NCBI GenBank assembly: GCA_050247355.1
Contig: JBFWUK010000007.1
Span: 71,100 to 135,099, forward strand
Reading direction: 5' to 3'
Source: Vicinamibacterales bacterium
GTDB taxonomy: Bacteria; Acidobacteriota; Vicinamibacteria; Vicinamibacterales; UBA2999
DNA: 64,000 bases
Part shown: positions 42,942 to 64,000 of the stretch, piece by piece
How positions within the stretch are numbered: the first letter of the stretch is position 1
Layout of the letters: the number at the start of each line of letters is the position of its first letter
Notes under the pieces: generated by a model
Seen by the model: only the letters and a program-made list of their open reading frames with translations
Databases searched by the model: none
Told to the model about the DNA's origin: nothing
Made by a program: the position numbers and the translations under genes

Positions 42942-43110
42942 GGCTACAGAGGACACAGAGAGTTAATTCTGCAAACTGGCTGTCAGCCCTTGCAATGCGA
43001 TTGGAAGCGGACTCGCGTCAGCGTGTTCTTACGTCTCCATCACCGTGCCGCCGAACCGCGCAGATTGCGCTGACCGGCGCGCGCAGTTTGAGGATTCGAA
43101 GCCAGGCCGC
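42942..43110. repeat. Intergenic repeat element, copy B (partial)
   Basis: GGCTACAGAGGACACAGAGAGTTAATTC (42942-42969) matches the copy A left arm plus GAGTAATTCC. The 16-mer TTCGAAGCCAGGCCGC (43095-43110) is identical to 9581-9596. Confidence 0.6.
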
Positions 43111-43158
43111 CTGATCTAACCCATCCTCCGAATCGGCAGGATCTGAGCGCAGCGGTCA

Positions 43159-43178
43159 GGCGGCGATGGCTCGCCGCC
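43159..43178 (-). terminator. Hairpin downstream of the hybrid kinase gene
   Basis: GGCGGCGA-TGGC-TCGCCGCC forms a perfect 8-bp stem 8 nt after the stop codon. There is no U-tract. Confidence 0.35.
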
Positions 43179-43186
43179 AGAGGCCC

Positions 43187-47275: not shown

Positions 47276-47418
47276 TCGTGCCTGACCGTGTTATAGCCGA
47301 AGTGACGCTGGTCAGGTAGGAGGAAGTGGCCGAGTCTTCCATGAGCGAGATCCATCGGACGAGGGATAAGTGGTTCTCATGATGGGGCGAGGCTGACAGC
47401 GGCCAGCCGGCCCTCACG

Positions 47419-49119
47419 TCAACGCGGCTGGCCGAACAGACCGCCGAAGAAGTCGCCCTCGTTCCATGCCGGCCTGGCGGATTGCTCCGCGACCTGCCAT
47501 CCCGTCAGGAAGTTGATCCTGGCATGGTCCGCTCCGGCCTCGAAGTCGAAGGCCTGCGACATGTCGTCGTTCGGCTTGTGGTACACGTCGCGGCGGTAGG
47601 CGGCGTTGATGGCGCTGCCGTCGCGGGCGTCACCGGTCTCGAATCCGCTCTTGATGAACAGCGACGGCACGCCCTGTCGCACGAAACTGTAGTGATCGCT
47701 GCGGATGAACAGCACCTGCTCGGGGATGGGATCCTCGCCAATGGCCATGCCCAGCTTTCTGGCGGCGCGGTTCACCGGCGTGGAGAGCGTGGAGTGCTGG
47801 GCGCCGTACGGCACGATGTCCTTCAGCGGATGGAACAGGAACGGCATGTCCAGCGTCAGGTCGGCGACAATGCCGCCGGCGGGCACGGTGGGGTTGCGCG
47901 CGAAGTAGTCCGAGCCGAGCAGGCCGCGCTCTTCGGCGGTGACAAACAGGAACAGGACCGATCGCTTCGGCGCCGCCGGCAGTGCCTTGAAAGCACGGGC
48001 CAGCTCCAGCACGATGGCCACGCCCGAGGCGTTGTCGTGCGCGCCGTTGTAGATGTCGTCGCCGTTCATCGCCACCCCGCGGCCAAAATGATCGACGTGC
48101 GCGATGTAGACGACGTGTTCGTTCTTCAGCGACGGGTCGGTGCCTTCGAGACGCGCCACCACGTTGGCACTGTCCAGGCTGGTGTGGGTTGACCTGGTCG
48201 TGATCGACACGCGTGTGGCAAGGTCGAATGCCTGGGGCTCGCTCTTCGCCGCCGCTGCGAACACCGCGGCCGCGGGCTTCGAGGCGCCGTCAAAGATCGC
48301 CGCGACGCCCGAGTGGTTGAGCGAGACCGAGCCGCGCAGGGCCGGATCGCCGCGATTGGGTTGTCCCTTCGCGTCGAGCCACGCGTAGTTGCCCTGTGCG
48401 CCGGTGGCGACGCTGACATCCCAGCGGAAGCGCGGGTCGTCCGGCGAGGTGAAGCTGATCGTGCCGACGGCGCCGCGCTTGACGGCCTCCGCGTCCTTGA
48501 CGGCGCCCGACGAGTAATACGCGCGCTCGTTGCTCGGCAGTTTCGCCGGGGCGCCGCTGAGATATGCGACCACCTTGCCCTTTACGTCCACGCCGGCGGC
48601 GTAGTCGTCATATCCCTGCGCCGGCGCGCTCACGCCGTAGCCGACGAACACCACGGGCGCATCTGCGAGGCTGACGTCTTCGCGCAACTGGTCCGCCGCC
48701 AGCAGATAGTCCTTGCCGTAGGCCAGGGTCTTCGTGGCGCCCTTGGACGTCACTGCGAACGAGCTTGCCTTCTGCACGATGACGCTGTTCCTGAGCGGCA
48801 CGCGCTGGCGGAAGCTGCCGTTTTCTCCGGACGGAGAGAGGCCGCCAGCGGTGAGCGTCTGTTCCACGTATTGCAGCGCGCGTTCATACCCGGCGCTGCC
48901 GAGCCCGCGGCCTTCCATTTCGTCGCGCGCGAGCACGGTCATGTGCTGCTTGATCCGGTCGGCGCTGATCGCTTCGAGCGCGGCGTCGATGGCGGGCGTG
49001 TCGATCGACACGGTTTCCTCAGTTGCCGGCGCCGGCGCTGCCGGTGCGCCTCCGCACGCAGCAAGCAGCCCACCCAACGCGATGCCCAGGAATCCATGTC
49101 GTCCGATACGCCGGCTCAT
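47419..49119 (-). CDS. M28 family metallopeptidase with PA domain, lipoprotein
   Basis: LLAACGG lipobox. Zn-ligand regions HVDHFG, GAHDNASG, AEERGLLGS and SDHYSF. Confidence 0.85.
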   Translation of the reverse strand: MSRRIGRHGFLGIALGGLLAACGGAPAAPAPATEETVSIDTPAIDAALEAISADRIKQHMTVLARDEMEGRGLGSAGYERALQYVEQTLTAGGLSPSGENGSFRQRVPLRNSVIVQKASSFAVTSKGATKTLAYGKDYLLAADQLREDVSLADAPVVFVGYGVSAPAQGYDDYAAGVDVKGKVVAYLSGAPAKLPSNERAYYSSGAVKDAEAVKRGAVGTISFTSPDDPRFRWDVSVATGAQGNYAWLDAKGQPNRGDPALRGSVSLNHSGVAAIFDGASKPAAAVFAAAAKSEPQAFDLATRVSITTRSTHTSLDSANVVARLEGTDPSLKNEHVVYIAHVDHFGRGVAMNGDDIYNGAHDNASGVAIVLELARAFKALPAAPKRSVLFLFVTAEERGLLGSDYFARNPTVPAGGIVADLTLDMPFLFHPLKDIVPYGAQHSTLSTPVNRAARKLGMAIGEDPIPEQVLFIRSDHYSFVRQGVPSLFIKSGFETGDARDGSAINAAYRRDVYHKPNDDMSQAFDFEAGADHARINFLTGWQVAEQSARPAWNEGDFFGGLFGQPR

Positions 49120-49842
49120 ATGTGTCGCCCTCCAATGGCTGGAGAAGGATAGCAGGTGCGGGCCTTGGGCGAGCCAGTCGATCGCAGGTTCAGGGCGCCG
49201 CGATCGTCAGCCGAGGGTCGGCGCGGCCCGCCGAGCTTGGCCACCGCTTCGGCGCGTGACTGCACCTGCAGCGTCTCGTAGATGCGGCGAACGTGGGCCC
49301 GGACGGTGTTGATGCTCACGCCGAGTTCGTCGGCGACTCCTTGTACATCAGCCCGCGGCTGAGCGCGGCCAGCACCTCGCGTTCGCGCTCGGTCAGGGCC
49401 TGTACTTCCGGCGCTTCTCGCCGCGGCGAGAAGTACTGCACCAGCTTGCGGGCGATGGCGCTCGAGATCGGCGAGCGCCGGCACACACCTCGCGCACGGC
49501 GTCGAGCACTTCGCCGCCGGTAGCTTCCTTCAGGACGTAACCGGTGGCGCCCGCCTTGAGGGACTCGAACACGGTCTCGCTGTCGCCCAGGGCCGTCAGC
49601 ATCACCACCTGCACCGAGGGCAACACGTTCTTGAGCTGCCGGACGCACTCGATGCCCGTCATTCCCGGCAGGTTGATGTCCATCAATACGGCGTCCGGCG
49701 CGAGGCCGGGAAGGTGCGCCATCGCCTCCTCGCCCGAACTGTACGCGCCGACGAGCCCTATCTCCGGATCGCCGGCCACGAGGGCGCCGTACTCCGCCCG
49801 CAGGCGGGGATCGTCTTCAACCAGGGCGAGGCGAATTGGCAT
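49116..49842 (-). pseudogene. NarL/LuxR-family response regulator disrupted by two 1-nt frameshifts
   Basis: REC domain in frame 1 (MPIRLALVEDD...LMDINLPGM...REVCAG). The linker and first HTH half sit in frame 2 (SPISSAIARKLVQYF...LTEREREVLAALSRGLMYKE). The HTH recognition helix sits in frame 3 (VADELGVSINTVRAHVRRIYETLQV). The frame switches occur near 49476 and 49347, both in short G/C runs. Confidence 0.7.
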
Positions 49843-49872
49843 GGTCAGTTAGTCCGGCGGGTCGGTGGTGCG

Positions 49873-52057
49873 CTATCGCATGGGCATGCGAAAGCGCACG
49901 GTGGTGCCTCGCCCTGGCACGGTCTCGATGGCCGCGCTGCCGCCGACCGCGGCCAGCCGGTCGCGCATGTTGGCCAGCCCGTGGCCGGCCGCCTGTTCCG
50001 GATCGAAGCCGCTGCCATCATCGGCAAAGGTCACCTCGAGGGCGCCGTCGCTCACGGTCAGGCCGATCTTGAGCGCGGACCCGCGGGCATGCTTCACGGC
50101 GTTGTTGACTGCCTCCTTGATGCCCAGGAACACGTGCCGCCGTGCTGTCGCCTCCAGCAGGTACGGCGCAATGGTGGCAGGTGCGTCGATGCGGCACCGG
50201 AGGCCGGCTGCGCGCGCGTGCCGCTCGGCGAAGCGGATCACATAGCTGACCAGCCCCTCCAGCGTGTCGTTGGTCGCGCTGACCGACCACACCAACTCGT
50301 CCATCGTCCGGGCCGTTTCGGCGGGCCGTGGTCGATAGCTCCGCGCGGGTCCCGGAGTCGGCGCTGCGATCGGCCAGCAGCGCCAGATACGTCAGCCGGG
50401 TGCCGATGTCGTCGTGCAGATCGCGCGCGATGCGCGAGCGTTCGCTGGCCAGTGCGTGCTCGCGTTCGAGCTCGGCCACCCTGGCGCGCGCGCCGCAGCG
50501 ACGCGCTGCGCACGACCACGCCAGTGACCACGAGCAGCAGCGTGAGGGCGGCCGCCTGCACCGTCCGCCGTTGCCACCACAACGGCGCCACCGTCAGCCG
50601 CAGGCGCGCCGGTGCGGGACTCCACAGGCCGTCGTTGTTGGCGGCCAGGACTTCGAGCGTGTACGCGTCCGGCGGCAGGTTGGTGTAGAAGACCGAGCGC
50701 CGGCCAATCGCCTCGTGCCAGTTGGCGTCGAAGCCGGCAAGCCGGTAGCGAAACCGCACCCGATCCGGCGCCAGCAGGCTGAAGGCCGTGTAGGCGATCT
50801 CCACGCCGCGGGTGCCCGCCGGTACCGGCACTTCGCCCGCGACGGGTTGTCTCACCTCGACCTCGTCGAGCGTGACGTGCTCGATGGCCACTGCCGGCGG
50901 GACCTGATTGAGCGGCAGCGTCGCCGGGTCGATCACGGCAATGCCATCGAGCGTGGAGAACCACAGCCGGCCCTGTCGATCGCGCAGGCCGGACGGGTCG
51001 AACCCGCCACCCGACCCTTCGAGTGACCACAGGCCGTCGGCCTTGCCGAGTACGATGGGATCGAGGGTCGAGGCCTCGCCGCGCGCGACGGCCTCCACGT
51101 TCTCCCGCAACAGTCGCGAGATGCCGCGCGAGCTGGCCACTCAGAGGTTGGCGTCGAGGTCCTCGATCATCAGCGCGATGACGGGATCGGGCAGTCCGTG
51201 CCGGACCCCGAAGTGTTCGTACCGGCCGGTGCGGCGGCGGAACAATCCCCGGTTGGCGGTGCCAATCCACAAGTCCCCGCGCGAGTCGATGTTCAGCGAA
51301 GACACGAGACTCGTCGGCAACCCCTCTTCCGGGCCGACATTGCGGAAGCGCCCCTCGTCGAGCAGAAACAGGCCGTTGGCATTGGAGCCTAGCCAGAGCC
51401 GCCCATTGGCGTCCTGCGCGAAGCTGACGACGCGTCCAGGCGGCAGGCCATGCGCGGGTCCGAACGTCTCGAGACGGCCGTCGCGCTGGCGATGGGTGTT
51501 GGCCGTGTCGGCGCCAATCCAGATGGCGCCGTCACGGTCCTCGAAGATCGCGGTCACGATCGACGAGCTGAGGCCCTCGCGCTCGCCGAAGTGCCGCAGC
51601 TGTCCGTCGCGCCAGGCATACAGCCCGGCCCGGTCGACGCCGAACCACAGCGTGCCGTCCGAAGCAGCCGGCACCGAGACGCCGCATTCAACGCGCGCGA
51701 TCTGCGGCAGGCGCGGTTGAAACCGTCCATCGGGTCCCAGCATCGAGAGCGGCGCACACCGGCCGCCGGCCCAAATCGTTCCCGCCGCGTCCTGGACGAT
51801 CGAGGTGATGACGCGCGACGACAGTCCGTGCTCCAGGCCGAGCATGGTCACCCGGGTCTTGCGCAGCCGGACCAGGCCCCCGCCGTCGGTGCCCAGCCAC
51901 AGGCTGCCACTTCGTCTTCGTGCATCCGAACCACGGGGGTTGGCGGCAGGCCGAACGCAGCACCGAACGTGGTGCGTGTTGCGCCGTCATAGCGCACCAC
52001 GCCGCCTCCGGTCGCGCGGTTCGCCCACACCGCTCCGTCTCGGGCGCGATAGAGCAC
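49873..52057 (-). pseudogene. NarX-type sensor kinase (Reg_prop repeats, Y_Y_Y, TM, HisKA_3, HATPase_c) disrupted by an in-frame stop and at least three frameshifts, and N-terminally truncated
   Basis: The domain pieces are spread over several ORFs and frames:
- 51848-52057 and 51141-51851: propeller repeats.
- 50238-51140: Y_Y_Y domain plus TM segment.
- 50018-50479: ERSRIARDLHDD H-box.
- 49873-50304: HATPase domain.
A TGA at 51141-51143 interrupts ...DLDANL*VASSRG... Confidence 0.7.
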
Positions 52058-52110
52058 GGATGGCGCTCCCGGTTCACAGCGGGCGCCTAGGCTTCGTACT
52101 GGCTAACACG

Positions 52111-52155
52111 CAATTTGAAAAGGACTGGCTTGGTGTCCTCTCTGTCCTCTGTGGC
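52111..52155. repeat. Intergenic repeat element, copy C (one arm only)
   Basis: CAATTTGAAAAGGACTGGCTTGGTGTCCTCTCTGTCCTCTGTGGC aligns with the copy A right half (CATTTTGAAGGACTGACTCTGAGTCCTTTGTTTCCTCTGTGGCC). It ends on the stop codon of the adjacent minus-strand gene. Confidence 0.65.
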
Positions 52156-52841
52156 TAATCTCCGTCACCTCGCCACAACCGCCTCACGTCGATCGCAAAC
52201 GACCATGCGAGCGTCGCGAGCGTAACGGCAGCGATGACCGAACTGGCGGGAGGTGGAACAGCGGGAGCAAGCGCCAGCGCGAGGCCGGCGAACTGCGCAA
52301 CCGCGACAGCCTTACCCCGAAACGTCGGTGACAACGGACCGGCGAGCCAGGGCATGACCCATCCAGCCGCGACGAACACATAGCGCATCAACCCGCAGGC
52401 CAGCACCCAGACGCCGGCCTTGTCGTGCCGCCACACGAACAGCGACAACACGAGAATCAGGAAAGCATCGACCTCGACGTCGAATCGCGCGCCGAACGCG
52501 CTGGCCAGGCCGGTCCGCCGCGCGAGCCAGCCGTCGAGACCGTCCAGTGCGGCAAGGACGACGGTGGCGGCCACCACTGCCCGTGCGTTGGCCGCGGCCG
52601 GTGGCTCCGCGAGCAGTGCGGCCACCAGCGCCAGCAGTGCGGCGCGGACCATCGTGACGTGGTTGGCCGCTCCGAACTGCGCGAAGGGGTGATGCGAACG
52701 GGCGGTGGACGCGACGATTGCCATCATCGTGGCGAAGATAGCCGTCGCCGCCCAAGGGTATCCGGAGGACGCCTGCAGGGACGGCCCGATCGCCAGTGCC
52801 ATACCCGCCACGCCGGCGATACCCAGACCGCCTGCGACCAA
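52155..52841 (-). CDS. CDP-alcohol phosphatidyltransferase family protein
   Basis: LDGLDGWLARRTGLASAFGARFDVEVD matches DG-x2-AR-x8-G-x3-D-x3-D. It has 5-6 TM segments. The start is uncertain (TTG 52841, GTG 52811 or ATG 52802). The upstream part of the 318-aa ORF is not credible. Confidence 0.8.
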   Translation of the reverse strand: MVAGGLGIAGVAGMALAIGPSLQASSGYPWAATAIFATMMAIVASTARSHHPFAQFGAANHVTMVRAALLALVAALLAEPPAAANARAVVAATVVLAALDGLDGWLARRTGLASAFGARFDVEVDAFLILVLSLFVWRHDKAGVWVLACGLMRYVFVAAGWVMPWLAGPLSPTFRGKAVAVAQFAGLALALAPAVPPPASSVIAAVTLATLAWSFAIDVRRLWRGDGD

Positions 52842-52929
52842 GACCTGCGCGCGAATAGGCAAGGGCGCATTGTAACTGGGACAGAATAGAGACCCGGGTC
52901 GGGAGTCGGGAGTCGGACCGCAGAGAGCA

Positions 52930-53952
52930 ATGAACAGAGAAGCTAGCGCGTTTTGGGTGGCTGAGCCCGGACGCGGCGAGATCAGGAACGAAGAGCTGCG
53001 TGCCCCGGCGGGCGACGAAGTGGTGGTGCGCGCCTTGTACAGCGGCATCAGCCGCGGCACCGAAGCTCTGGTCTTCGCCGGCCGCGTCCCGCAAAGCGAG
53101 TGGGCGCGCATGCGCGCACCGTTCCAGGAGGGCGAGTTTCCTGCCCCGGTGAAGTATGGCTACTCGCTGGCAGGTGTCGTCGAGCACGGCGCCGACGAAC
53201 TGCTGGGCCGTCACGTCTTCGTCTTGCATCCTCACCAGACCCGGTTCGTGGTGCCGGCGGCCGCCGTGACCGTGCTGCCCGACGGAGTTCTACCCGAACG
53301 GGCCGTGCTGGCCGCGAACCTCGAGACCGCGCTCAACGGCATCTGGGACGCCCGGCCGCACGTCGGCGATCGCATCGCCGTGATCGGCGGCGGCACGGTT
53401 GGCATGCTAACGGCGTGGCTGGCCAGCCGGCTCCCAGAGTGTGTCGTCGTACTGGTCGACACCAACCCGCAACGCGAGATCGTGGCGCGCGCGTTGGGCG
53501 TGCCGTTTACCACTCCGGAGCACGCCGCCGGCGAGGCGGACGTCGTGATTCACGCCAGCGGTTCGCCATCAGGGCTCGAACTGGCCCTCAGCCTGGCGGC
53601 GCTCGAAGCCACGATTGTCGAAATGAGCTGGTTCGGCGATCAAGTCGTGCCCCTGCCGCTGGGCGGCGCGTTTCACTCGAAACGGCTGACCCTCGCCTCG
53701 TCGCAGGTCGGCCGTATTGCCCCGGCCCAGCGGGCGAGGTGGGATTATCGCCGGCGCATGCAGTTGGCGCTGGCCATGCTTCGCGATCCGGCGCTGGATG
53801 CCGTGATCACCGGCGAGAGTCCGTTCGACACGCTGCCCGAGGTGATGGCCGGCCTCGCGAACGCGGCGGGCGACGTGCTGTGCCATCGCATTCGCTACTC
53901 CCACCCCACCGCGCAGAGTCCGCGCGGCGGGGACCCCGGGGGGCTTGGCTAA
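52930..53952 (+). CDS. Medium-chain (zinc-type) dehydrogenase/reductase family protein, BchC-like
   Basis: 340 aa. YSGISRGTE...[12 protein letters not shown] in the GroES-like domain and a Rossmann GGGTVGML motif. Confidence 0.8.
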
Positions 53953-54038
53953 ACAACACTGTGACTGGCGAGGCCGAGCCACCTCTCGCCGGCCCAAGGC
54001 GAGCGCTAGTCATTCGCAACGATAGAAGGAGAACTTCG

Positions 54039-54449
54039 ATGTACTACGTGACGGTGCGCGACCACATCATGATCGCGCACAGCTTCAAGGGCGATGTGTT
54101 CGGTCCTGCCCAGCGCCTGCACGGCGCTACCTACGTGGTGGACGCCGAGTTTCGCCGCCCCGACCTCGACGCCGACGGCATTGTCGTGGACATCGGCCGC
54201 GCCGGCGACGCGCTGAAGAAGGTGCTGGCCGATTTGAATTTCCGTAATCTGGATGAGGTGCCGGAGTTCAAGGGCCGGAACACCACGACCGAGTTCATCG
54301 CCCGTGTCGTGTTCGACCGATTGGTGGCCGCGATCCAGCGAGGCGACCTGGGACCCGGTGCCGCTGCCGTGGAGAGCATGCGCATCACCCTGCAGGAATC
54401 ACACGTCGCGTCGGCCGCCTACGAAGGCCGCGTCGGCGGCCAGGCCTGA
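54039..54449 (+). CDS. 6-pyruvoyl-tetrahydropterin synthase / QueD-fold protein with a degenerate active site
   Basis: 136 aa with an AAGGAG Shine-Dalgarno. IMIAHSF and RLHGATYVV align with my recollection of E. coli QueD (FEAAHRL and CGRLHGHSF). On that alignment the catalytic Cys and the third His are both Ala here. Confidence 0.7.
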
Positions 54450-54451
54450 CC

Positions 54452-55507
54452 ATGCCGTCGGCGGCGTTCGTGGTGCCTGGTCCGATCGACACCAGGACGG
54501 GCGGTTCGATCTACGACCGCCGCATGGCCGAGGGCCTGGCTCGCCTCGGCTGGCACATCACCGTCGTCGAACTCGAAGGCGCGTTTCCGCAGCCGGCCGT
54601 CGCCGATGTCGAACGAGCCGCTGCGGCGCTTGCCTCGATCGCGGCCGGGACGCTGGTGGTCGTCGATGGCCTCGCGCTCAGTGCAATGCCCGAGGTGATC
54701 GAACACGAGGCCGCGCGGCTGCGCGTTGTCGCGCTCGTTCATCTGCCGCTGGCCGCTGATGTCGGATTCGACGCCGGCACGCGCGCGAAGCTGGCGAAGG
54801 GCGAGGAGCGGGCTCTTGCTGCTTCCGCGCTCATCGTGGTCACCGGTTCGACGACAATTGGTTTGCTGGAGCAGTACGCGCTGGAAAAGGGACGGATGGT
54901 CGTGGTCGAACCCGGGACCGACCCGGCACCGCTGGCGGGCGGTTCCAGAGGCCCGGGTGTGCATCTGCTCTGCGTCGCGACCGTGAACGCCGGGAAGGGT
55001 CACGACGTGCTGTTCTCGGCGGTGGCCGCGGTGCCGAATCGGGACTGGCGCCTGACCTGCGCCGGCAGCCTCACGCGCGATACCGCAGCCGCCGACCGTA
55101 TTCGCCTCATGGCGGAACAACTGGGAATCAACGACCGCCTGACGCTCGCCGGCGAACAGGATAGCGCGGCCCTTGCCGGCTGCTACGCCGCCGCCGACGT
55201 GTTCGTGCTGGCCACCCGGCGCGAGACCTACGGCATGGCAGTGGCCGAGGCGCTGGCCCACGGGCTGCCGGTCGTCAGCACTACGACCGGCGCGATTCCC
55301 GATCTCGTCGGCAACGACGCTGGCATCCTGGTGCCGCCCGGAGACGCCGCGGCGCTGACCCGGGCGCTGTCACGAGTCATCGGTGATGCCGGCCATCGCG
55401 CTGGCTTGGCGGCCGGCGCCCGGCAGGTTCGCAATCGACTGCCAACCTGGGAACATGCCGCCGCGCGAATGAACGCCGCGCTCCAGAGCCTTGATGCCCA
55501 TGACTGA
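54452..55507 (+). CDS. GT-B fold glycosyltransferase (GT4-like)
   Basis: 351 aa with GGSIYDR near the N-terminus. The C-terminal RRETYGMAVAEALAHGLPVVST is an E-x7-E type motif region. The start is 2 nt after the upstream stop. Confidence 0.85.
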   Translation: MPSAAFVVPGPIDTRTGGSIYDRRMAEGLARLGWHITVVELEGAFPQPAVADVERAAAALASIAAGTLVVVDGLALSAMPEVIEHEAARLRVVALVHLPLAADVGFDAGTRAKLAKGEERALAASALIVVTGSTTIGLLEQYALEKGRMVVVEPGTDPAPLAGGSRGPGVHLLCVATVNAGKGHDVLFSAVAAVPNRDWRLTCAGSLTRDTAAADRIRLMAEQLGINDRLTLAGEQDSAALAGCYAAADVFVLATRRETYGMAVAEALAHGLPVVSTTTGAIPDLVGNDAGILVPPGDAAALTRALSRVIGDAGHRAGLAAGARQVRNRLPTWEHAAARMNAALQSLDAHD

Positions 55508-56366
55508 TTCACTTGCTGAGTGGCTTCGATTACGCGAGGCTGACGATTGGGAGGCGCGATCGCCGCGGCTGGTGCAGCAGGTGGTTGACGCGATCGGCCA
55601 GGTTGACACCTTGCACGTGCTGGACCTCGCCACCGGAACCGGCTCTAACGTTCGTTATCTTGCTGAACGCCTGCCGGGCCGCCAGCGATGGCTGGTGGCC
55701 GATCGCAGCCCTGACCTGTTGGCGCTGGTCACCGATCGCACCGCATCGTGGGCTGCGGCGCGCGGTTACCAATGCGAGGTTCGCGCGACCGGACTTCGCG
55801 TGCGCCACGACTCCCTGGATTGCGAGCTTGAGACGTTGCAACGGGATCTGCGGGTCCTCGACGCCGGGCTGTTCGCGGCGAGGCACCTCGTGACCGCCTC
55901 GGCGTTGCTGGACCTCGTGTCCGAATCGTGGCTGCGGTCGCTGGCCGCGCACTGTCGTGACGCCGGCGCCGCCGCGCTGTTTGCCCTCACCTACAACGGC
56001 GAGTCGTCCTGCTCGCCGGTCGAGCCCGAAGACGAACTGGTTCGCGAGTTGCTGAATCGGCATCAGCACACGGACAAGGGGCTGGGCGGCGTGGCCGCCG
56101 GACCGGATGCCGTGGCGTGCGCCGAACGCAGTTTCATCGAGGTGGGTTACGCGGTGCGAGTCGAGCCGACCGACTGGAACCTCGGCGCAGCCCAGGCCGA
56201 TATGCAGCGTTACCTGGTCGGCGACTGGGCACGCGCCGCCGCTGAACTGTCACCAGACCCACGCATCTCAAGCTGGCGCGATCGCCGGCTGGCCCACATC
56301 GACGCCGGGCGTTCCCGCATCGTCGTTCGCCATCACGACCTGGCCGCATGGCCCGTCAAGTCATGA
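55500..56366 (+). CDS. Class I SAM-dependent methyltransferase
   Basis: VLDLATGTGSNVRYLA (motif I). ATG 55500 overlaps the glycosyltransferase stop (ATGACTGA). In-frame alternatives lie at 55491 and 55494. Confidence 0.75.
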   Translation: MTDSLAEWLRLREADDWEARSPRLVQQVVDAIGQVDTLHVLDLATGTGSNVRYLAERLPGRQRWLVADRSPDLLALVTDRTASWAAARGYQCEVRATGLRVRHDSLDCELETLQRDLRVLDAGLFAARHLVTASALLDLVSESWLRSLAAHCRDAGAAALFALTYNGESSCSPVEPEDELVRELLNRHQHTDKGLGGVAAGPDAVACAERSFIEVGYAVRVEPTDWNLGAAQADMQRYLVGDWARAAAELSPDPRISSWRDRRLAHIDAGRSRIVVRHHDLAAWPVKS

Positions 56367-57235
56367 GCGAACGGCCGTCACCGCGCTTCGAGCCGGGCCA
56401 GGTGCGCGACTACTACGACCGCCACACGGCTGCCTTCGTTACGCACGGGCACGGTGCGGACGCCGGCGCGATCCATCGCGCGGTCTGGGGGCCGGGTGTG
56501 GGCGATCGCGCCCGGGCCATTCACTACGTCGATGAGCGAATCGCGGACGTCATTCGCGGCCTGGCTGAAGCGGACGGGCGTCCGCTTCACGTCGTGGATC
56601 TCGGCTGCGGGGTGGCAGGAAGCGGTTGCTACCTGGCGGCGCGCCTGCCGGTGCGTGTCACCGGGATCACGATTAGCCCCGTGCAAGCGCGGCTCGCACA
56701 GCTCCGCATTCGCGAGGCCGGTCTGACAGATCGCGTGGTCTGCATCGAAGGCGACTACAACGCATTGCCGGAGGCGGTCGGCGTGGCGGACGTCGCCTAC
56801 GCGATCGAGTCGTTTGTCCACGGGCCCACGCCCGACCGATTCTTCGCGCAGTGCCGGCGGTTGTTGAGACCTGGCGGTGTGCTGGTGATCTGCGACGACT
56901 TCCGCCGTCCCACCGCGGATCCTAGAGCCGCGGCCGCGATCGAGCGCTTCTGCCGCGGCTGGCACGTCAACGCGCTCTTGGATCAAGACGCCCTGGCGGC
57001 CCTGGCACGAGCCCACGGCTTCGACCACGACTCCGTCGTGGACCTGTCGCCCTACCTGGAACTGCGCCGCGTTCGCGATCGAGCGCTGAATGCGCTGCTG
57101 CCGCTGCTCAGGCTGCTGCCGGTCAACGCCAACCGGTTCGACTACATCGATGGTGGCGGCGCGCTGCAGGAATGCCTCGCGCAGGGATGGATCACGTACG
57201 AGTTGGTGACGTTCCGCGCAGCCAGGCAACCCTGA
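56363..57235 (+). CDS. Class I SAM-dependent methyltransferase (CFA-synthase / sterol-MT-like)
   Basis: VVDLGCGVAGSGCYLA (motif I) and LRPGGVLVICDDF (post-II). ATG 56363 overlaps the upstream stop (ATGA); ATG 56348 is an alternative. Confidence 0.8.
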   Translation: MSERPSPRFEPGQVRDYYDRHTAAFVTHGHGADAGAIHRAVWGPGVGDRARAIHYVDERIADVIRGLAEADGRPLHVVDLGCGVAGSGCYLAARLPVRVTGITISPVQARLAQLRIREAGLTDRVVCIEGDYNALPEAVGVADVAYAIESFVHGPTPDRFFAQCRRLLRPGGVLVICDDFRRPTADPRAAAAIERFCRGWHVNALLDQDALAALARAHGFDHDSVVDLSPYLELRRVRDRALNALLPLLRLLPVNANRFDYIDGGGALQECLAQGWITYELVTFRAARQP

Positions 57236-57243
57236 AGGGTTGC

Positions 57244-58209
57244 CTAGATCACTCGTGTGACGACCGGAGCACTGTCGGTCGCGCAATCGGTGTTGGCCTG
57301 CGAATCCAGCTCGCAATCGAACAGCACGTCGCCGCCCATTCGGAACACCCGGTAGCCGGGGCGCAGGCAGTCGCGTAACCGGGCCTGCGGCGCCAGGCGG
57401 ATGGCCGGGCGGCCGTTGCCAATCAAAACCGGCGCAATGGCCAGCTGCAGGCGGTCCAGCAGGTTGGCGGCAAGGAACGCCGAGACCGTGACACCGCCGC
57501 CTTCGACGAACACCCGCGCGCAGCCGCGCGCGCGCAGCAGTTCTGCCACTTCGGCCACGCCGGCGGGCCCCTCGGCCACTCCGACGACCGCCGCGCCGCC
57601 AATCTGGTCTTCGCCTGGTTCCAGCCGCGAACGTTCGCAGATGTACAGCGTTGCCGCCGCCCTGTCGGTGAACAGTTTGAAGGTGGGCGCCAGCCGGCGT
57701 CCTGGATCGAAGATCACGCGCAGCGGGTGCGGTCCGGTCACGTGGCGGGTCGTCAGCTGCGGATCGTCGGCCGCCACCGTACCGGCGCCGACCACGACGG
57801 CGTCGCACAGCGCGCGCATGCGATGCAAGTGGACGATGTTGCCCTCGCCGGTCACGAACTGCGAATCGCCGGTATGGGTCGCGATGAAACCGTCGAGACT
57901 CTGGCCCAGGTGTCCGATGGTGATTGGCCGCGAGGCCGTGGCGCCGCAAATGGGCAGGTAGAGATCGATCAGGTCCGCTAACGGACTGTCGGCCGGCAGG
58001 CGCGAGTGCCAGCCGGAGCCCGGCCGCCACTCCAGCACGGTATCGGCGGCTTCACCAGCGACCGGTTGCAGTGTTGAGCCAACGAGCGCGAACGACCCCG
58101 CCCGCCCGTCGTGCTCCAGGCCGCCAGCCATGGCGTTGGCTGCGAGCAGCAGGGGCCAGGCGGCGTCGGCGGCTAACGCCGCTGGCGAAGAAATGCTGTC
58201 TGGCGACAC
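57244..58209 (-). CDS. RibD C-terminal-domain (pyrimidine/pterin reductase, DHFR-like fold) protein with a 90-aa N-terminal extension
   Basis: HLGQSLDGFIATHTGDSQFVTG...LHRMRALCDAVVVGAGTVAADDPQLT...VFVEGGG is the RibD_C/DHFR-like pattern. GTG start. It is convergent with the methyltransferase operon across an 8-nt gap. Confidence 0.8.
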   Translation of the reverse strand: MSPDSISSPAALAADAAWPLLLAANAMAGGLEHDGRAGSFALVGSTLQPVAGEAADTVLEWRPGSGWHSRLPADSPLADLIDLYLPICGATASRPITIGHLGQSLDGFIATHTGDSQFVTGEGNIVHLHRMRALCDAVVVGAGTVAADDPQLTTRHVTGPHPLRVIFDPGRRLAPTFKLFTDRAAATLYICERSRLEPGEDQIGGAAVVGVAEGPAGVAEVAELLRARGCARVFVEGGGVTVSAFLAANLLDRLQLAIAPVLIGNGRPAIRLAPQARLRDCLRPGYRVFRMGGDVLFDCELDSQANTDCATDSAPVVTRVI

Positions 58210-58277: not shown

Positions 58278-58337
58278 ATGACCACTTTCCTGCCACCCGG
58301 GCGGCGTACGCCGCACTTGCTCCCGACACACTTATGA
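58278..58337 (+). CDS. 19-codon leader ORF (MTTFLPPGRRTPHLLPTHL) translationally coupled to pyrC
   Basis: It is the only ORF with a Shine-Dalgarno in this leader. Its stop overlaps the pyrC start (ATGA), and pyrC itself has no recognisable Shine-Dalgarno. Confidence 0.45.
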   Translation: MTTFLPPGRRTPHLLPTHL

Positions 58338-59638
58338 AACGCTTGCTCAAGGGCGGCCGCGTCGTCGACCCGGCCAACGGACGCGACGGCATCTTCGACG
58401 TTCTGATCGACGGCGATCGCATTGCCGAGGTCGGCACCAACCTGAACGCCGACGCGGCAGAGGTCGTCAACATTCCGGCCGGGCTCGTGGTGTGTCCCGG
58501 GCTGATCGACATGCACGTGCACCTGCGCGAGCCTGGCCAGGAGCACAAGGAAACCGTCGCGACCGGCGTGGCCTCGGCTGTCGCCGGTGGCTTCACGGCG
58601 GTCGCGTGCATGCCCAACACGAAGCCGGTCAACGACAACGCCGGCGTCACCAAGCTGATTCTGCAGAAGGCCGCCGAGGCCAACCTGGCGCGGGTCTATC
58701 CCATTGGCGCCGTATCGCGCGGGCAGAAGGGCGAAGAGCTCGCCGACATCGCCGAGTTGAAGGAAGCGGGCTGCGTCGCGGTGACCGACGATGGATTGCC
58801 GGTGGCCACTGCGATCCTGGCGCGGCGCGCGCTCGAGTACACCAGCATGTTCAAGATGCCGGTGATCGAGCACTGCGAGGACCAGACGCTGAAAGGCGAC
58901 GGCGTCGCGCACGAAGGACCGGTTGCCGCATCGCTGGGGCTGCGCGGCATCCCGGGCGTCGCCGAAGCCATCACCGCCGGCCGCGACATCCTGCTGGCCG
59001 AAATGACCGGCGGCCACATCCATATCGCGCACATGAGCGCGTGGACCACCATCGAGGCGGTCCGTCAGGGCAAGAGCCGCGGCGTGAACGTCACCTGCGA
59101 GGTGTGCCCGCACCACTTCACGCTGACCGACGACATGCTGGCCGCGCCGGTGGCCTACGACACCAACACCAAGATGAACCCGCCGCTGCGCGAAGCGCGC
59201 GATCGCGATGCCATGATCGCCGGCATCGTCGACGGCACCGTGGACGTCATCTCCACCGACCATGCGCCGCATCACTACGACGAGAAGAACGTCGAGTTCG
59301 ACCGCGCGCCGTTCGGCATTGTCGGCCTCGAAACCGCGGTGCCGATCACGCTCGACAAGCTGGTGCACACGGGCCTGATCACGTTGTCGAGGATGGTGGA
59401 GTTGATGTCGGTGAACCCGGCCAGGATCCTGAACGTGCCAGGCGGCTCGCTTGCGCCCGGCGCGCCGGCCGACATCACCATTCTCGCACTCGAGTTGCCG
59501 GTGACCATCGACAAGACCAAGCTGGTGAGCAAGTCGAAGAACACCCCGTATCACGGCTGGTCGTTCAAGGGCGGTGTCGCGGCCACCATTGTCGGCGGCC
59601 GCACGGTTTACTCCAATCCCGCGGTGAAGCTGACCTGA
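58334..59638 (+). CDS. pyrC: Dihydroorotase (long, class I type)
   Basis: 434 aa. DMHVHLREPG (HxH metal site), the DDG region, and DHAPH near the C-terminus. Confidence 0.9.
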   Translation: MKRLLKGGRVVDPANGRDGIFDVLIDGDRIAEVGTNLNADAAEVVNIPAGLVVCPGLIDMHVHLREPGQEHKETVATGVASAVAGGFTAVACMPNTKPVNDNAGVTKLILQKAAEANLARVYPIGAVSRGQKGEELADIAELKEAGCVAVTDDGLPVATAILARRALEYTSMFKMPVIEHCEDQTLKGDGVAHEGPVAASLGLRGIPGVAEAITAGRDILLAEMTGGHIHIAHMSAWTTIEAVRQGKSRGVNVTCEVCPHHFTLTDDMLAAPVAYDTNTKMNPPLREARDRDAMIAGIVDGTVDVISTDHAPHHYDEKNVEFDRAPFGIVGLETAVPITLDKLVHTGLITLSRMVELMSVNPARILNVPGGSLAPGAPADITILALELPVTIDKTKLVSKSKNTPYHGWSFKGGVAATIVGGRTVYSNPAVKLT

Positions 59639-61162: not shown

Positions 61163-61411
61163 ATGGCCACCAAGACCATCTCGTTGAAAGTAGAGGCATA
61201 TAACCGGCTCGCCGGCGCCCGCCGCTATCGCGACGAGTCGTTCAGCGAGGTGGTGATGCGGGCAACCTGGCCGGAAGACACCATTACCGGCAGGGCGCTT
61301 CTCGACTTGTTGGGCTCGCGGCGCGTGCATTTGCGCGCCGAGGAGTTGGACCGCCTCGACGAACTCAAGCAGAGCGAGTTGCCGCCCGAGGACAAATGGG
61401 CCGAGCGCTGA
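61163..61411 (+). CDS. vapB: VapB-type antitoxin (DUF217-like putative antitoxin family)
   Basis: MATKTISLKVEAYNRLAGARRYRDESFSEVVMR follows the KTISlxxEaYxxL...ESFSevi pattern. It overlaps the downstream PIN gene by 16 nt. Confidence 0.75.
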   Translation: MATKTISLKVEAYNRLAGARRYRDESFSEVVMRATWPEDTITGRALLDLLGSRRVHLRAEELDRLDELKQSELPPEDKWAER

Positions 61412-61794
61412 TTCTCGAGAGCACGTTCCTGATCGATCTCGAACGCGCGCACAAACGCGGCGCGCCCGGCGGGACGATCGCATTTCTCGAACAGAACCAG
61501 GACGCGCGGCTCTACCTTCCGTTCGTCGTCGCGGGCGAGATCGCGTCGGGCATCTCCATGCGCGATCGCGCGCGATGGGAGGCCTTCCTCGCGCCGTTCT
61601 ATGTGCTGCCGCCGACTCCCGAAGTGAGCTGGCAGTTCGGCCGCGCCTTCAGGCACCTGCGCGACAACGGCAACCTGATCGGCGCGAACGACCTCTGGAT
61701 CGCCGCCACCGGCCTCGCCTACGAGATGCCGGTCGTGACCCGAAACGTCGAGCACTTCAGGCGCGTGCCGGGTCTGGAGGTTGAAAGTTACTAG
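61396..61794 (+). CDS. vapC: PIN-domain toxin VapC
   Basis: N-terminal LILESTFLIDL, central acidic residues, NDLWIAATG and TRNVEHF motifs. The first acidic residue is Glu rather than the usual Asp. Confidence 0.8.
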   Translation: MGRALILESTFLIDLERAHKRGAPGGTIAFLEQNQDARLYLPFVVAGEIASGISMRDRARWEAFLAPFYVLPPTPEVSWQFGRAFRHLRDNGNLIGANDLWIAATGLAYEMPVVTRNVEHFRRVPGLEVESY

Positions 61795-64000
61795 TCGCGC
61801 CGCAGAGCCTCGGCTGGGCTGACACCCGCTGCCCGCTGAACCGGCACCAGGGTCGACCCGGCGGCCACGGCGACCACGATGGCCGCAGCAGCGACGATGG
61901 GCAGCGCACCAACCGGTCCCAGGTTCTCGACCCAGTTCCCCGCCAGCCGCTGTCCCCACATCGCGAGCGGGGTACCGACGATTAGTCCAACAGCGACGCA
62001 TCCCGCCGCGCTCTTCAAGACCATGCGCGTGATGTCGCCTCGCGTGGCGCCCAGGGCCATGCGGACGCCGATCTCGTTGATGCGGCGGTTCACCGCGAAA
62101 GCCAACAGGCCATAGAGCCCGATGCCCACGAGGATGGCCCCCAACGCGCCGAACAACCCGGACAAGGTGGCGGCCAGACGCTCCGGCACTATCGACGCGT
62201 TGACCTGATCGGACAGCGTCGTCACGCCGGCGACGGCCCCCGTCTTCAGTGCATCCGACACCACCCGCTGCACATCGCCGGCCACGGCAATGGGATCGAC
62301 GCTGGTGCGGAGCGACAAGCGATGCGATGACATCCGCGGTTCCTGGAACGGGTTCAAGTACACCGTGGGCGGCGCCTCCCGCCGCAGGTCGATGTACTTC
62401 GCATCGCCGACAACGCCGACAATCTCGAACGACCGCACCTCTCCGGTGGGTCTGCCGGTCAGGCTTTCGAGCGAGAGACGCTGCCCGATCGCGCTGCGGC
62501 CAGGGAAGTAATGCCTTTCAATCGCCTGGTTGACGATCGCCACCGGCGCGCGGCCCTGGTCGTCGAAACGAAAATCCCGCCCCGCGACCAGCGGCGTGGC
62601 GAAGGTCTCGAAGTAGCGCGGCGCGACCCAGTTCACCGAGGCGTACTCACGCGCCTCGGGCGCTTCGGGAAAGCCATCGACCGTGACGAAGCTTGCGGCG
62701 CCGGCGCCGTGAATGGGTGTTACCGCACTCAAGGTTGCCGAACTGACCCCCGGCACGCGCGCCAGCGTGGCTAGCAAGTCCTGATAAGGCTGAAACAGCT
62801 GGGCTCGTTCGTAGCCGCTATTGGCGGGATCCAGCGTCACGAGCAAGACCGCACTGCGATCGAAGCCGAGGCCGGTGTTGCGAAGGCTCGAGAGGTGTCC
62901 GATGAACAACCCCGACACGGTCAGCAGCACGAGAGACACGGCGACCTGCGCCATCACGAGCGACGTCCCAAACCTCATCCGCGATCGCGACGGCCCGGAC
63001 GTTCCTGACTCACGCATTACCGGGGCGGGTGGGGCCGCGACCGCTTGCCATGCCGGAACCAGACCAAACAGAAGGCCGGCCAGCAATGACACGCCGGCGG
63101 TGAACACCAGCACGCGTCCATCGAGTTGGGCATCGAGCTGGATTGGTCCAATGAGACCGACGAACCCGCGTCCCGAGGTGAGAATGCCGACGAGCACGTT
63201 CACGCTCGCATAAGCCAGCGCGACGCCCGCCACGCCTCCGGCCAGCGCCAGCAGCACCGACTCGGTTAACAACTGTCGCAGCAGGCGCAGTCGCGGAGCG
63301 CCCAGCGAGACCCGCACCGCCACCTCCCGCTGGCGCGCAGCCCCCCGGGCCATCAGCATGCCGGCAATGTTGCTGCAGGCGGCGAACAGCAGCAAGCCGA
63401 CCACCGCCATCAACACCAGCAACGGCCGGGCGAACCCGTCCCGCAGCATGGCGAGTCCAGTGGCGGCAGGTTCGACGTCGATCGTCAATGCGCCAAGGTT
63501 CGGCGCCCGTTTCAAAGCCTGCTCGACCCGCCAGCGGTCGAGCACCAGCATCTCGGCACGCGCCTGTTCGACCGACACACCCGGTTTGAGACGCGCCATC
63601 AGGGCGACGGGCAGCGCACCGGTCAGGCGTTGACTGGGCTGCTGGAACGCCGGCTCCACCGCGGCCGGTAACCACACCTGCGGTCGCGCCGCGATGTTCA
63701 CGCCGGTGAACTCGCGTGGCGTGATGCCGACGATGACCGCGGAGGTGGCGCCGATGGTGATCCGCTGCCCAACGGCCGCGGGGTCGCCGTTGAAGCGCGA
63801 CCGCCAGAAGGCCCAGCTGATGACCGCGACCGGCTCCGCGCCGGCTTGATCGTCGGCTGGAACGATTACTCGCCCCATCGCGGGTTGCACGCCGAGCGTC
63901 TCGAAGAACTTCCCGACGACATACTCACCATGGACCGGTGCGGACTCGAATGCCTGGCCGCCGACCGGCAGGCGGAAGGCCGACATCGCGATTAGGTCGG
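61791..64000 (-). CDS. ADOP-family duplicated FtsX/MacB-type permease (N-terminus probably beyond the window edge)
   Basis: Two FtsX 4-TM modules with MacB-like periplasmic domains, paralogous to 36580-39033. The ORF is open to the window end. Its stop overlaps the vapC stop (CTAG). Confidence 0.85.
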   Translation of the reverse strand, partial: DLIAMSAFRLPVGGQAFESAPVHGEYVVGKFFETLGVQPAMGRVIVPADDQAGAEPVAVISWAFWRSRFNGDPAAVGQRITIGATSAVIVGITPREFTGVNIAARPQVWLPAAVEPAFQQPSQRLTGALPVALMARLKPGVSVEQARAEMLVLDRWRVEQALKRAPNLGALTIDVEPAATGLAMLRDGFARPLLVLMAVVGLLLFAACSNIAGMLMARGAARQREVAVRVSLGAPRLRLLRQLLTESVLLALAGGVAGVALAYASVNVLVGILTSGRGFVGLIGPIQLDAQLDGRVLVFTAGVSLLAGLLFGLVPAWQAVAAPPAPVMRESGTSGPSRSRMRFGTSLVMAQVAVSLVLLTVSGLFIGHLSSLRNTGLGFDRSAVLLVTLDPANSGYERAQLFQPYQDLLATLARVPGVSSATLSAVTPIHGAGAASFVTVDGFPEAPEAREYASVNWVAPRYFETFATPLVAGRDFRFDDQGRAPVAIVNQAIERHYFPGRSAIGQRLSLESLTGRPTGEVRSFEIVGVVGDAKYIDLRREAPPTVYLNPFQEPRMSSHRLSLRTSVDPIAVAGDVQRVVSDALKTGAVAGVTTLSDQVNASIVPERLAATLSGLFGALGAILVGIGLYGLLAFAVNRRINEIGVRMALGATRGDITRMVLKSAAGCVAVGLIVGTPLAMWGQRLAGNWVENLGPVGALPIVAAAAIVVAVAAGSTLVPVQRAAGVSPAEALRRD

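Follow-up and report, generated by a model that had tools for sequence, protein, structure and literature searches.

A widespread SCO6650-type gene cluster in a Vicinamibacterales genome as a candidate route from GTP to a lipid or envelope head group

We analysed a 64,000-nucleotide (nt) stretch of a Vicinamibacterales bacterium (GenBank assembly GCA_050247355.1, contig JBFWUK010000007.1, positions 71,100 to 135,099; hereafter the window, in whose numbering all positions are given). It carries nine genes of a putative pathway in two blocks, 40711–42924 and 52155–58209, and among them is the gene for a protein with the T-fold of 6-pyruvoyl-tetrahydropterin synthase (PTPS). By sequence, this protein is an orthologue of SCO6650 of Streptomyces coelicolor. 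We consider it close to an even call that the Vicinamibacterales locus is one copy of an SCO6650-type pathway, widespread but uncharacterised, which would turn GTP into a glycosylated and methylated head group and deliver it to a lipid or to the cell envelope. An initial annotation of the second block had offered a pterin-like molecule or a polar lipid head group as alternatives; the gene context now suggests both together. Our literature search found no paper that assigns a function to the SCO6650-type cluster, and we know of no pathway assigned to the SCO6650 structure or to the aberrant GTP cyclohydrolase II SCO6655 since 2006–2008.

Conservation of the gene neighbourhood

A pattern scan with one genome per species of the Genome Taxonomy Database found a relative of the T-fold protein in at least 591 species, and we examined the best 80 loci. 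Neighbours were counted by tblastn with the window proteins in the 57 loci flanked on either side by 8 kb or more of sequence. The most constant partners are a GT4 glycosyltransferase (98% of these loci), a dehydrogenase of the medium-chain dehydrogenase/reductase (MDR) superfamily (96%) and a methyltransferase dependent on S-adenosylmethionine (SAM), MT1 (95%). They are followed by a CDP-alcohol transferase (82%), a reductase with the RibD C-terminal domain (RibD_C; 81%), an LtaS/EptA-like membrane protein of 520–540 amino acids (aa; 58%) and GTP cyclohydrolase II (54%). Gene order is kept as well, with the dehydrogenase directly upstream of the T-fold gene at 71 of 77 loci and GT4 directly downstream at 72 of 74. 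Represented among the loci are Acidobacteriota, Gemmatimonadota, Pseudomonadota (alpha, beta and gamma, including Variovorax, Hydrogenophaga, Chromohalobacter, Salinicola and Inquilinus), Actinomycetota (including Streptomyces, Amycolatopsis, Actinoplanes and Nocardiopsis) and Myxococcota. Because the same order recurs across phyla at 30–65% protein identity, the arrangement is not a product of chance. The gene set picked out by the initial annotation is therefore co-conserved, in 57 well-flanked loci from five phyla, and we regard this cross-phylum linkage, like the family, fold and residue assignments below, as established.

The second methyltransferase of the window, MT2, is present in 6 of the 57 loci (11%), all Vicinamibacterales; the double methylation first proposed is thus lineage-specific, and other lineages carry an FkbM methyltransferase instead (23 of 80 loci). 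The range first annotated was also too short, as two further pathway genes, for GTP cyclohydrolase II and the LtaS-like enzyme, lie about 10 kb upstream (40711–42924). Close relatives join the two blocks: orthologues of GTP cyclohydrolase II adjoin the cluster's membrane-enzyme genes in four of them (L002–L004 and L007), and in L002 and L003 the genes for GTP cyclohydrolase II, the LtaS-like protein and the CDP-alcohol transferase are adjacent, so that the halves separated by about 9 kb in the window (42925–52154) are contiguous there. Annotated copies on plasmids bear out the pattern: on the Agrobacterium tumefaciens plasmid pAt, ten contiguous genes encode a sulfatase, a flippase-like protein, a CDP-alcohol transferase, RibA, the dehydrogenase, the T-fold protein, GT4, a methyltransferase, RibD and a cytochrome b.

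Accessory genes were found by clustering unassigned open reading frames (ORFs) and scanning them against Pfam and NCBIfam, with counts taken over all 80 loci. A creatininase-family protein occurs in 29 loci; 23 have an MprF-type flippase-like domain, encoded immediately behind MT1 and in its orientation. A YceI protein occurs in 11, cytochrome b561 in 7 and, in actinomycetes, an inositol-monophosphatase-family protein in 4. The MdoH equivalog (711 bits against a cut-off of 419) occurs in 9 loci and also on plasmid pOB3b1 of Methylosinus trichosporium OB3b, and MdoG in 5. The mdoG/mdoH (opgGH) genes are linked to the cluster in Gemmatimonadota, some gammaproteobacteria and Methylosinus, and they adjoin the dehydrogenase, T-fold, GT4 and MT1 genes in L066 (5208–12458), L062, L016 and the Methylosinus plasmid (L083); in L066 and L062 they share the strand of the core genes and look like part of one operon. 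Genes for cytochrome b561 and for YceI-family periplasmic lipid-binding proteins likewise join the cluster repeatedly (for example L086 12011–12544 and L087 11528–12085), a linkage that hints at a redox role at the membrane. The window itself has none of these accessory genes, whether creatininase, flippase-like, FkbM, MdoH/MdoG, YceI, b561 or inositol-monophosphatase-family. Four ORF families (c3, c7, c9 and c12), and probably c4 and c6 as well, were discarded as antisense ORFs of real genes in high-GC DNA.

This distribution bears on whether the cluster makes a specialised secondary metabolite, such as a toxoflavin-like or nucleoside-type antibiotic made from the GTP cyclohydrolase II product, with the membrane proteins serving export or self-resistance. 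GTP cyclohydrolase II, a RibD-type reductase and methyltransferases also come together in toxoflavin-type pathways, and copies of the cluster lie on plasmids and in Streptomyces. However, the gene order is conserved across soil, marine and halophilic lineages of several phyla, and the T-fold protein is 60–76% identical between phyla, which is atypical of fast-evolving antibiotic clusters. Neither a polyketide or nonribosomal-peptide synthase nor a dedicated exporter turned up among the conserved neighbour families scanned, the one recurrent regulator being a LysR-family gene at 6 loci, and the linkage to opgGH and to cytochrome b561/YceI points instead to envelope physiology. We therefore hold a secondary metabolite to be very unlikely.

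The T-fold protein and its core partners

The T-fold protein (136 aa; 54039–54449, plus strand, behind a GAAGGAG ribosome-binding site) matches PF01242 over profile positions 2–120 of 121 (E 9e-24; 84.2 bits against a cut-off of 22.4). Its best solved relative, which the initial annotation had overlooked, is S. coelicolor SCO6650 (PDB 3D7J, deposited as ‘uncharacterized protein’; E 3e-47 over residues 2–128). Besides this full-length similarity, the SCO6650 type is marked by HGAT and ESH motifs that are at least 90% conserved in 27 divergent relatives. Spoonamore and colleagues are said to have solved the SCO6650 crystal structure in 2008 without zinc, and to have seen no PTPS activity.

The PTPS fold is thus shared with the PTPS/QueD family (COG0720), but the signature motifs and catalytic residues are not. 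In a HMMER alignment to Caenorhabditis elegans PTPS (PDB 2G64), the catalytic Cys is replaced by Ala24 and the HGH motif reads HGA, with Ala30 at the third zinc His. Both substitutions had been noticed at the outset, and the alignment confirms that the PTPS residues are truly not there; the degeneracy goes further than first described, as the catalytic Asp-His pair is also replaced, by Asn-Phe (Asn-Tyr in the consensus of relatives). Three subfamily signatures have been described, CxxxHGH for PTPS-I, CxxxxxHGH for PTPS-II and ExxHGH for PTPS-III (PMC5041015). The window protein departs from the first, shared with QueD, in reading A-QRL-HGA, from the second in having Gly at the Cys position and NF for DH, and from the third in having Gln25 at the Glu position and HGA for HGH. 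It scores 39.9 against a cut-off of 89.25 with the QueD profile TIGR03367, and 25.9 against 125.5 with TIGR00039 (6-pyruvoyl-tetrahydropterin synthase). GenBank and its pipeline PGAP name SCO6650-type proteins ‘6-carboxytetrahydropterin synthase’, with a Gene Ontology term for queuosine biosynthesis; a systematic error of annotation is probable, since the window protein falls below the QueD cut-off and has no QueD catalytic motif.

The protein keeps the first two zinc-His positions and the C-terminal Glu, and H14, S15, H28, T84, E85, E120 and S121 are each at least 90% conserved in the 27 divergent relatives. Because H14, S15, H28, E85, E120 and S121 are so conserved, the site looks remodelled rather than decayed. 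Across phyla the operon partners are 30–65% identical against the 60–76% of the T-fold protein, an unusually strong predicted constraint for a protein without any canonical catalytic residue. That pattern would also suit a non-enzymatic role, as a pterin- or purine-binding carrier, or as a chaperone or scaffold for the dehydrogenase or GT4, and such a role could be reconciled with either destination proposed for the product. In its favour, every known PTPS catalytic residue and one zinc ligand have been lost, conservation is far above that of the neighbours, and SCO6650 reportedly has no zinc in its crystal structure and no PTPS activity. The conserved residue set argues for catalysis instead, and a T-fold enzyme, GTP cyclohydrolase I, performs metal-independent Amadori and ring-closure chemistry (PMC4161248). 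We judge a non-enzymatic T-fold protein to be quite unlikely.

A search of 1.8 billion cluster representatives recovered 88 T-fold clusters at E≤1e-30. Some database proteins of 375–855 aa (P0122, P0125, P0127, P0134 and P0162) carry two or three tandem SCO6650-like PTPS domains per chain, an arrangement suggestive of a T-fold trimer with covalently joined subunits.

The dehydrogenase (52930–53952, plus strand) is of the BchC/polyol-dehydrogenase type: its best NCBIfam match is bchC (TIGR01202; E 5e-16, 58.7 bits against a cut-off of 291.25), followed by weaker matches to tdh, IolM and galactitol-1-phosphate dehydrogenase, and its sequence matches in the PDB are weak. The protein, initially labelled an MDR dehydrogenase, falls below the Pfam cut-off for ADH_zinc_N (22.3 against 31.8) and is predicted to have neither the canonical Cys nor the His ligand of the catalytic zinc. 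In 74 orthologues GISRGTE and KYGY are invariant, and HPHQ and the Rossmann G-G-G-x-x-G are conserved; we take GISRGTE to stand where zinc MDR enzymes have GxCGTD, and KYGYS where they have GHE.

The GT4 (GT-B) glycosyltransferase (54452–55507, plus strand) matches Glycos_transf_1 (E 7.5e-27; 94.4 against 26.4) and Glyco_trans_1_4 (97.8 against 27), with ETYGMAVAEA conserved in the E-x7-E region. Its best PDB matches are sucrose-phosphate synthase (6KIH, E 9e-23), MshA (3C4Q, E 3e-16) and BshA (5D00), and it reaches none of the corresponding equivalog cut-offs (MshA 73.7 against 462.5, BshA 53 against 273.7, sucrose-phosphate synthase 31.8 against 576). The closest solved relatives glycosylate small phosphorylated or anionic acceptors, which suggests an acceptor of that kind here.

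Of the two SAM methyltransferases initially annotated, MT2 (56363–57235, plus strand) is a class I enzyme by Pfam (Methyltransf_11, E 3e-16), whereas MT1 (288 aa; 55500–56366, plus strand) is sub-threshold for Methyltransf_25, with a Pfam methyltransferase score of 25.3 bits against a cut-off of 27, and owes its class I assignment to the fold of its AlphaFold model. That model has a predicted local distance difference test (pLDDT) score of 89.8 and gives 453 Foldseek matches at E≤0.001; those listed are methyltransferases, among them 3MGG, phosphoethanolamine N-methyltransferases and RebM. The best NCBIfam match is OlsG (E 4e-5), the D/E-x-G-x-G motif is conserved as DLATGTG, a PDB sequence search gave no match, and the fold search indicated no specificity for N-, O- or C-methylation. 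An anti-phage defence system, prompted by a Pfam ‘GT4-conflict’ match, was considered and rejected, as PADLOC returned only a generic methyltransferase similarity to mad2.

A candidate route from GTP to the envelope

GTP cyclohydrolase II (216 aa; 40711–41361, plus strand; PF00925, E 6e-69) is the only one of the nine window proteins to reach a curated equivalog cut-off, passing both TIGR00505 ribA (242.3 against 205.85) and NF001591 (263.9 against 148). It retains the Tyr of the IRAYALQ (RAYALQ) motif and is likely the entry step of the pathway. Spoonamore and colleagues reportedly found in 2006 that a Tyr-to-Met change halts a cyclohydrolase at the formylamino intermediate. In Sinorhizobium and Brucella, a creatininase-family formamidase deformylates the formylamino-pyrimidine intermediate, BrbF being the bacterial case of this chemistry (PMC9478397). 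The change proved only in part a predictor of the creatininase gene: the five cyclohydrolases with Met or His for Tyr, all in actinomycete loci, are each accompanied by one, but so are 21 of the 34 Tyr forms.

The reductase (321 aa; 57244–58209, minus strand, convergent on the operon) has a clear RibD_C domain (PF01872, E 1e-35; 123.7 against a cut-off of 24.1) and stays below both ArfC/RibD equivalog cut-offs, TIGR01508 (104.8 against 186.45) and TIGR00227 (117 against 150). Its best PDB matches, 6P8C (E 3e-25) and 2AZN of Methanocaldococcus jannaschii (E 1e-18), are 2,5-diamino-6-ribosylamino-pyrimidinone 5'-phosphate reductases, with which the cofactor and substrate motifs SLDG, DAvvVG..TV..DDP.LT and EGGg align. 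There is no N-terminal cytidine-deaminase-type domain, the first 95 aa or so being poorly conserved and without a Pfam match, and a bifunctional RibD was rejected for want of the deaminase domain. In their cyclohydrolase, creatininase-family formamidase and pre-deamination reductase, the clusters as a family are predicted to share three activities with the archaeal-type riboflavin/F420 steps (ArfA, ArfB and ArfC) and with BrbF. In contrast to that route, they have no deaminase, lumazine synthase or FO synthase, their reductase and creatininase fall below the ArfC and ArfB cut-offs, and nothing in flavin pathways corresponds to their T-fold protein, dehydrogenase, GT4, methyltransferase and lipid enzymes.

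Could these simply be housekeeping genes for riboflavin, folate or queuosine (ribA, ribD, queD) beside unrelated lipid and glycosyltransferase genes? The GenBank/PGAP names, ‘6-carboxytetrahydropterin synthase’ with its queuosine term and ‘RibD family protein’, read that way, and GTP cyclohydrolase II does pass as RibA. Yet the T-fold protein fails both the QueD cut-off and the PTPS-I, -II and -III motifs, the reductase has no deaminase domain and scores below the ribD and ArfC cut-offs, and different phyla keep the same linkage to GT4, methyltransferase and lipid genes. Neither a gene for lumazine or riboflavin synthase nor queC/queE or a fol gene adjoins the locus, and an Rfam scan of 39000–60000 at E≤1 gave no match, hence no riboswitch for flavin mononucleotide (FMN), tetrahydrofolate (THF), preQ1 or anything else and no regulatory hint as to the ligand. 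We find a housekeeping origin scarcely credible; by the tests run, the cluster is predicted not to be a folate, queuosine, riboflavin or biopterin operon. The absence of a known pathway noted at the outset holds too, as the seven proteins of the second block all stay below the curated equivalog cut-offs for folate, queuosine, riboflavin, phospholipid and thiol metabolism. With the genes co-conserved, no characterised pathway matched and the PTPS residues absent, the overall interpretation of the initial annotation is supported.

Two enzymes point towards lipids. The CDP-alcohol phosphatidyltransferase (52155–52841, minus strand, TTG start; the GenBank alternative start is 52862) matches PF01066 (E 1e-15; 58.9 bits against 22) and has an intact signature D-x2-DG-x2-AR-x8-G-x3-D-x3-D, here DGLDGWLARRTGLASAFGARFDVEVD, conserved in 31 orthologues; its curated scores are 33.6 against 109 for PgsA, 21.6 against 170 for PIP synthase, 20.3 against 107 for PssA and 17.5 against 240 for ClsA. 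The second is a membrane-anchored enzyme of the alkaline-phosphatase superfamily resembling LtaS, EptA and OpgB (519 aa; 41365–42924, plus strand), just short of the Pfam Sulfatase cut-off (E 2e-5; 24.4 bits against 25). PDB sequence searches with either protein gave no match. The AlphaFold model of the LtaS-like protein (pLDDT 83.9) finds as its best PDB matches in Foldseek LtaP/LtaS (4UOP, E 4e-9), full-length MCR-1, PbgA, EptC and GacH, and E221, T264, H382, D454 and H455 are conserved in 36–39 of 39 cross-phylum homologues. The order of these five residues presumably corresponds to that of the metal ligands and nucleophile in LtaS/EptA, a match of motif order and not of superposition. The enzyme is accordingly a putative phospho-head-group transferase. 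The CDP-alcohol signature and, by motif order, the alkaline-phosphatase-fold residues resemble those of phospholipid head-group systems, in which PgsA or PIP synthase is combined with LtaS, OpgB (MdoB), EptA/MCR-1 or GacH, and the opgGH linkage in some taxa mirrors the OpgB system, in which OpgB decorates periplasmic glucans from phosphatidylglycerol. The cluster differs from PgsA/LtaS-type systems in that both enzymes lie below the curated cut-offs and the presumed head group would derive from GTP, not from glycerol, ethanolamine, inositol or serine.

These assignments can be arranged into a candidate pathway of seven steps, in which every substrate, the order of the third to sixth steps and the product are proposals of ours. 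First, GTP cyclohydrolase II would open GTP to 2,5-diamino-6-ribosylamino-4(3H)-pyrimidinone 5'-phosphate; in actinomycetes the Met/His-variant enzyme and a creatininase-type formamidase would together give the same product. Second, the archaeal-type RibD_C reductase would reduce the ribosyl to a ribityl group, yielding an open-chain polyol phosphate whose 2-amino-4-oxo ring would be kept, because there is no deaminase. Third, the zinc-less BchC-like dehydrogenase and the zinc-less T-fold protein would remodel this polyol phosphate; the most plausible chemistry would be oxidation of a secondary alcohol of the side chain and ring closure to a pterin-like bicycle, and oxidation of the 2'-hydroxyl would give a keto-amine like that from an Amadori rearrangement, which could be closed to a pterin resembling dihydroneopterin phosphate. 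A precedent for such a conversion is the chlamydial RibA and TrpF bypass, in which an Amadori-type step turns the product of GTP cyclohydrolase II into a pterin of the dihydroneopterin type (PMC4161248); unlike here, that bypass uses TrpF in place of a T-fold protein, dehydrogenase and reductase, and its product feeds folate.

In the fourth step, the MshA/sucrose-phosphate-synthase-like GT4 would glycosylate the polyol phosphate, and in the fifth MT1, joined in the window organism by MT2, would methylate it. Sixth, the PgsA/PIP-synthase-like transferase would couple the product to CDP-diacylglycerol, forming an unusual phospholipid, and seventh, the LtaS/OpgB/EptA-like enzyme would move the phospho-head group to an extracytoplasmic acceptor, for which the recurrent opgGH linkage makes periplasmic glucan one candidate. 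The origin in GTP is suggested by the bona fide GTP cyclohydrolase II, the reductase closest to 6P8C and 2AZN, the creatininase genes and the conserved His and Glu of the T-fold protein; the destination in a lipid or the envelope is suggested by the intact CDP-alcohol signature, the LtaS-like fold with its conserved residues, the MprF-type domain and the MdoH/MdoG linkage. In its more specific form, the proposal would give bacteria of at least five phyla a phospholipid whose head group is a heterocycle made from GTP, either a pterin or a diaminopyrimidinone polyol, glycosylated and methylated, with LtaS/OpgB-like transfer to periplasmic glucans or other envelope polymers; we regard this form as attractive and doubtful. 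The cytochrome b561 and YceI genes found with the cluster in several lineages make it conceivable that the molecule is a redox-active pterin anchored in the membrane or periplasm.

Several observations weigh against the pathway as drawn. The loci examined are the best 80 from at least 591 species. In Streptomyces, Amycolatopsis and Nocardiopsis neither a RibD_C nor an LtaS-like gene lies within 10 kb, so the second step (reduction) and the seventh (transfer) do not belong to every version, and the ribosyl form may be what the T-fold protein acts on. The CDP-alcohol transferase is missing from several opgH-linked loci. As the window GTP cyclohydrolase II passes the RibA cut-offs and lies about 10 kb from the second block, it could be the housekeeping ribA. 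The T-fold protein, without the known PTPS catalytic residues, could be a binding protein and not an enzyme, and its family has a second context: on Streptomyces linear replicons (L084 and L085), stand-alone SCO6650-like genes, 52–60% identical, neighbour genes for a metallo-beta-lactamase-fold hydrolase, a cupin, a sigma factor and a BTAD regulator. The Foldseek TM-scores of the LtaS-like protein are moderate (0.38–0.61). Finally, CDP-alcohol transferases can join two soluble alcohols, as in di-myo-inositol-phosphate synthesis.

That last activity figures in an explanation in which the product is a soluble pterin or pyrimidine glycoside (a cofactor, pigment, signal or compatible solute) and the CDP-alcohol transferase either joins two soluble alcohols or has an unrelated lipid role. 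The four most constant genes, for the dehydrogenase, T-fold protein, GT4 and MT1, match no membrane-protein family; the membrane-protein genes are less constant (58–82%) and absent at, for example, Methylosinus pOB3b1 and L016; and the closest relatives of GT4 use soluble acceptors. Pterin glycosides made by GT-B enzymes are known, and the cyanobacterial ones follow the same concept, a BGluT-type GT-B enzyme glycosylating the pterin side chain, though they are made by way of GTP cyclohydrolase I and a catalytic PTPS, without any lipid enzyme. Against a soluble product, three kinds of phospholipid head-group machinery recur beside the core (the CDP-alcohol transferase, the LtaS-like protein and the MprF-type domain), and the accessory families scanned include no cytidylyltransferase that would make a soluble CDP-alcohol. 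On balance a soluble glycoside seems unlikely, and a lipid or envelope destination remains the one that we prefer.

Genomic setting and relation to known systems

The seven genes of 52155–58209 and their strands, as first annotated, are borne out by the ORF listing, Pfam and direct reading, and so are the junctions: 88 nt separate the divergent starts of the CDP-alcohol transferase and dehydrogenase, 2 nt the T-fold and GT4 genes, and 8 nt the end of MT2 from the convergent RibD_C gene, while the GT4 stop and MT1 start overlap in ATGACTGA (55500–55507) and MT1 and MT2 in ATGA (56363–56366). Tight packing of five plus-strand genes does not quite hold, because 86 nt lie between the dehydrogenase and the T-fold gene; four are tightly coupled. 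GenBank starts MT1 at 55611 (251 aa), and the start at 55500 is supported by homologues of 288–292 aa and by the ATGACTGA overlap. A perfect 8-base-pair inverted repeat, GGCAACCC-tgaa-GGGTTGCC (57224–57244), spans the MT2 stop and the gap before the RibD_C stop and may be a bidirectional terminator hairpin; as it has no T-tract, the terminator scan did not flag it. The promoter and terminator scan was in any case uninformative, with fewer sites than in shuffled sequence.

Between the two blocks lie genes for a 1362-aa multi-PAS hybrid histidine kinase (43187–47275, minus strand), a response regulator and a Y_Y_Y/HisKA_3 kinase, and a 566-aa ORF (47419–49119, minus strand). The region 40711–58209 is flanked upstream by pyrR-pyrB (39133–40650) and downstream by pyrC (58334–59638) and then a gene for a 207-aa phosphoribosyltransferase, with pyrR and pyrB assigned by eye from signature motifs and pyrC with Pfam support through L001; it looks as if the pathway region had been inserted into a pyrimidine operon. 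Further out, a VapB/VapC-type (PIN) toxin–antitoxin pair (61163–61794) and two large MacB/FtsX-type permease genes (36580–39033 and 61791–63986) are seemingly unrelated. G+C content is about 68% across the whole window, without a compositional break at the locus. The identical stretch is also found in assembly GCA_050186845.1, and the closest relatives of the organism are Vicinamibacterales of the Acidobacteriota.

In its early steps the candidate pathway would resemble the archaeal-type flavin route and in its late steps phospholipid head-group synthesis and transfer, and the middle steps (T-fold protein, dehydrogenase, GT4 and MT1) are without a characterised counterpart. The nearest comparison is the S. 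coelicolor SCO6650 region, tied to the window by orthology of the cluster with SCO6650–SCO6655, of which two proteins have been studied singly. The Streptomyces gene order, CDP-alcohol transferase, dehydrogenase, T-fold protein, GT4, methyltransferase, flippase-like protein, creatininase and GTP cyclohydrolase II, fits the numbering SCO6650–SCO6655. The Streptomyces cyclohydrolase, of the SCO6655 type, has Met for Tyr, whereas the window enzyme keeps the canonical Tyr. The window version differs from Streptomyces in its additional RibD_C, LtaS-like and MT2 genes, in the 9-kb insertion that splits it, and in lacking creatininase, flippase-like and inositol-monophosphatase-family genes. A 2026 review still ascribes to the variant Streptomyces cyclohydrolase, the third RibA homologue, a ‘completely new function ... 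unrelated to flavin biosynthesis’ (PMC13151069). The Streptomyces comparison yields orthology rather than function.

The analysis gives SCO6650 and SCO6655 a conserved context of nine to ten genes and a candidate destination, the cell envelope. In the 80 best loci the T-fold gene sits in the cluster, and the organisms concerned include the tractable Agrobacterium and Streptomyces as well as Methylosinus OB3b, Variovorax and Chromohalobacter, which are well studied. Should the lipid reading prove right, a nucleotide-derived heterocycle would be added to the phospholipid head groups and envelope-glucan substituents, as a class of membrane lipid without a described counterpart, and it would bear on osmoadaptation, on redox chemistry in the envelope and on the unidentified polar lipids of taxonomic descriptions.

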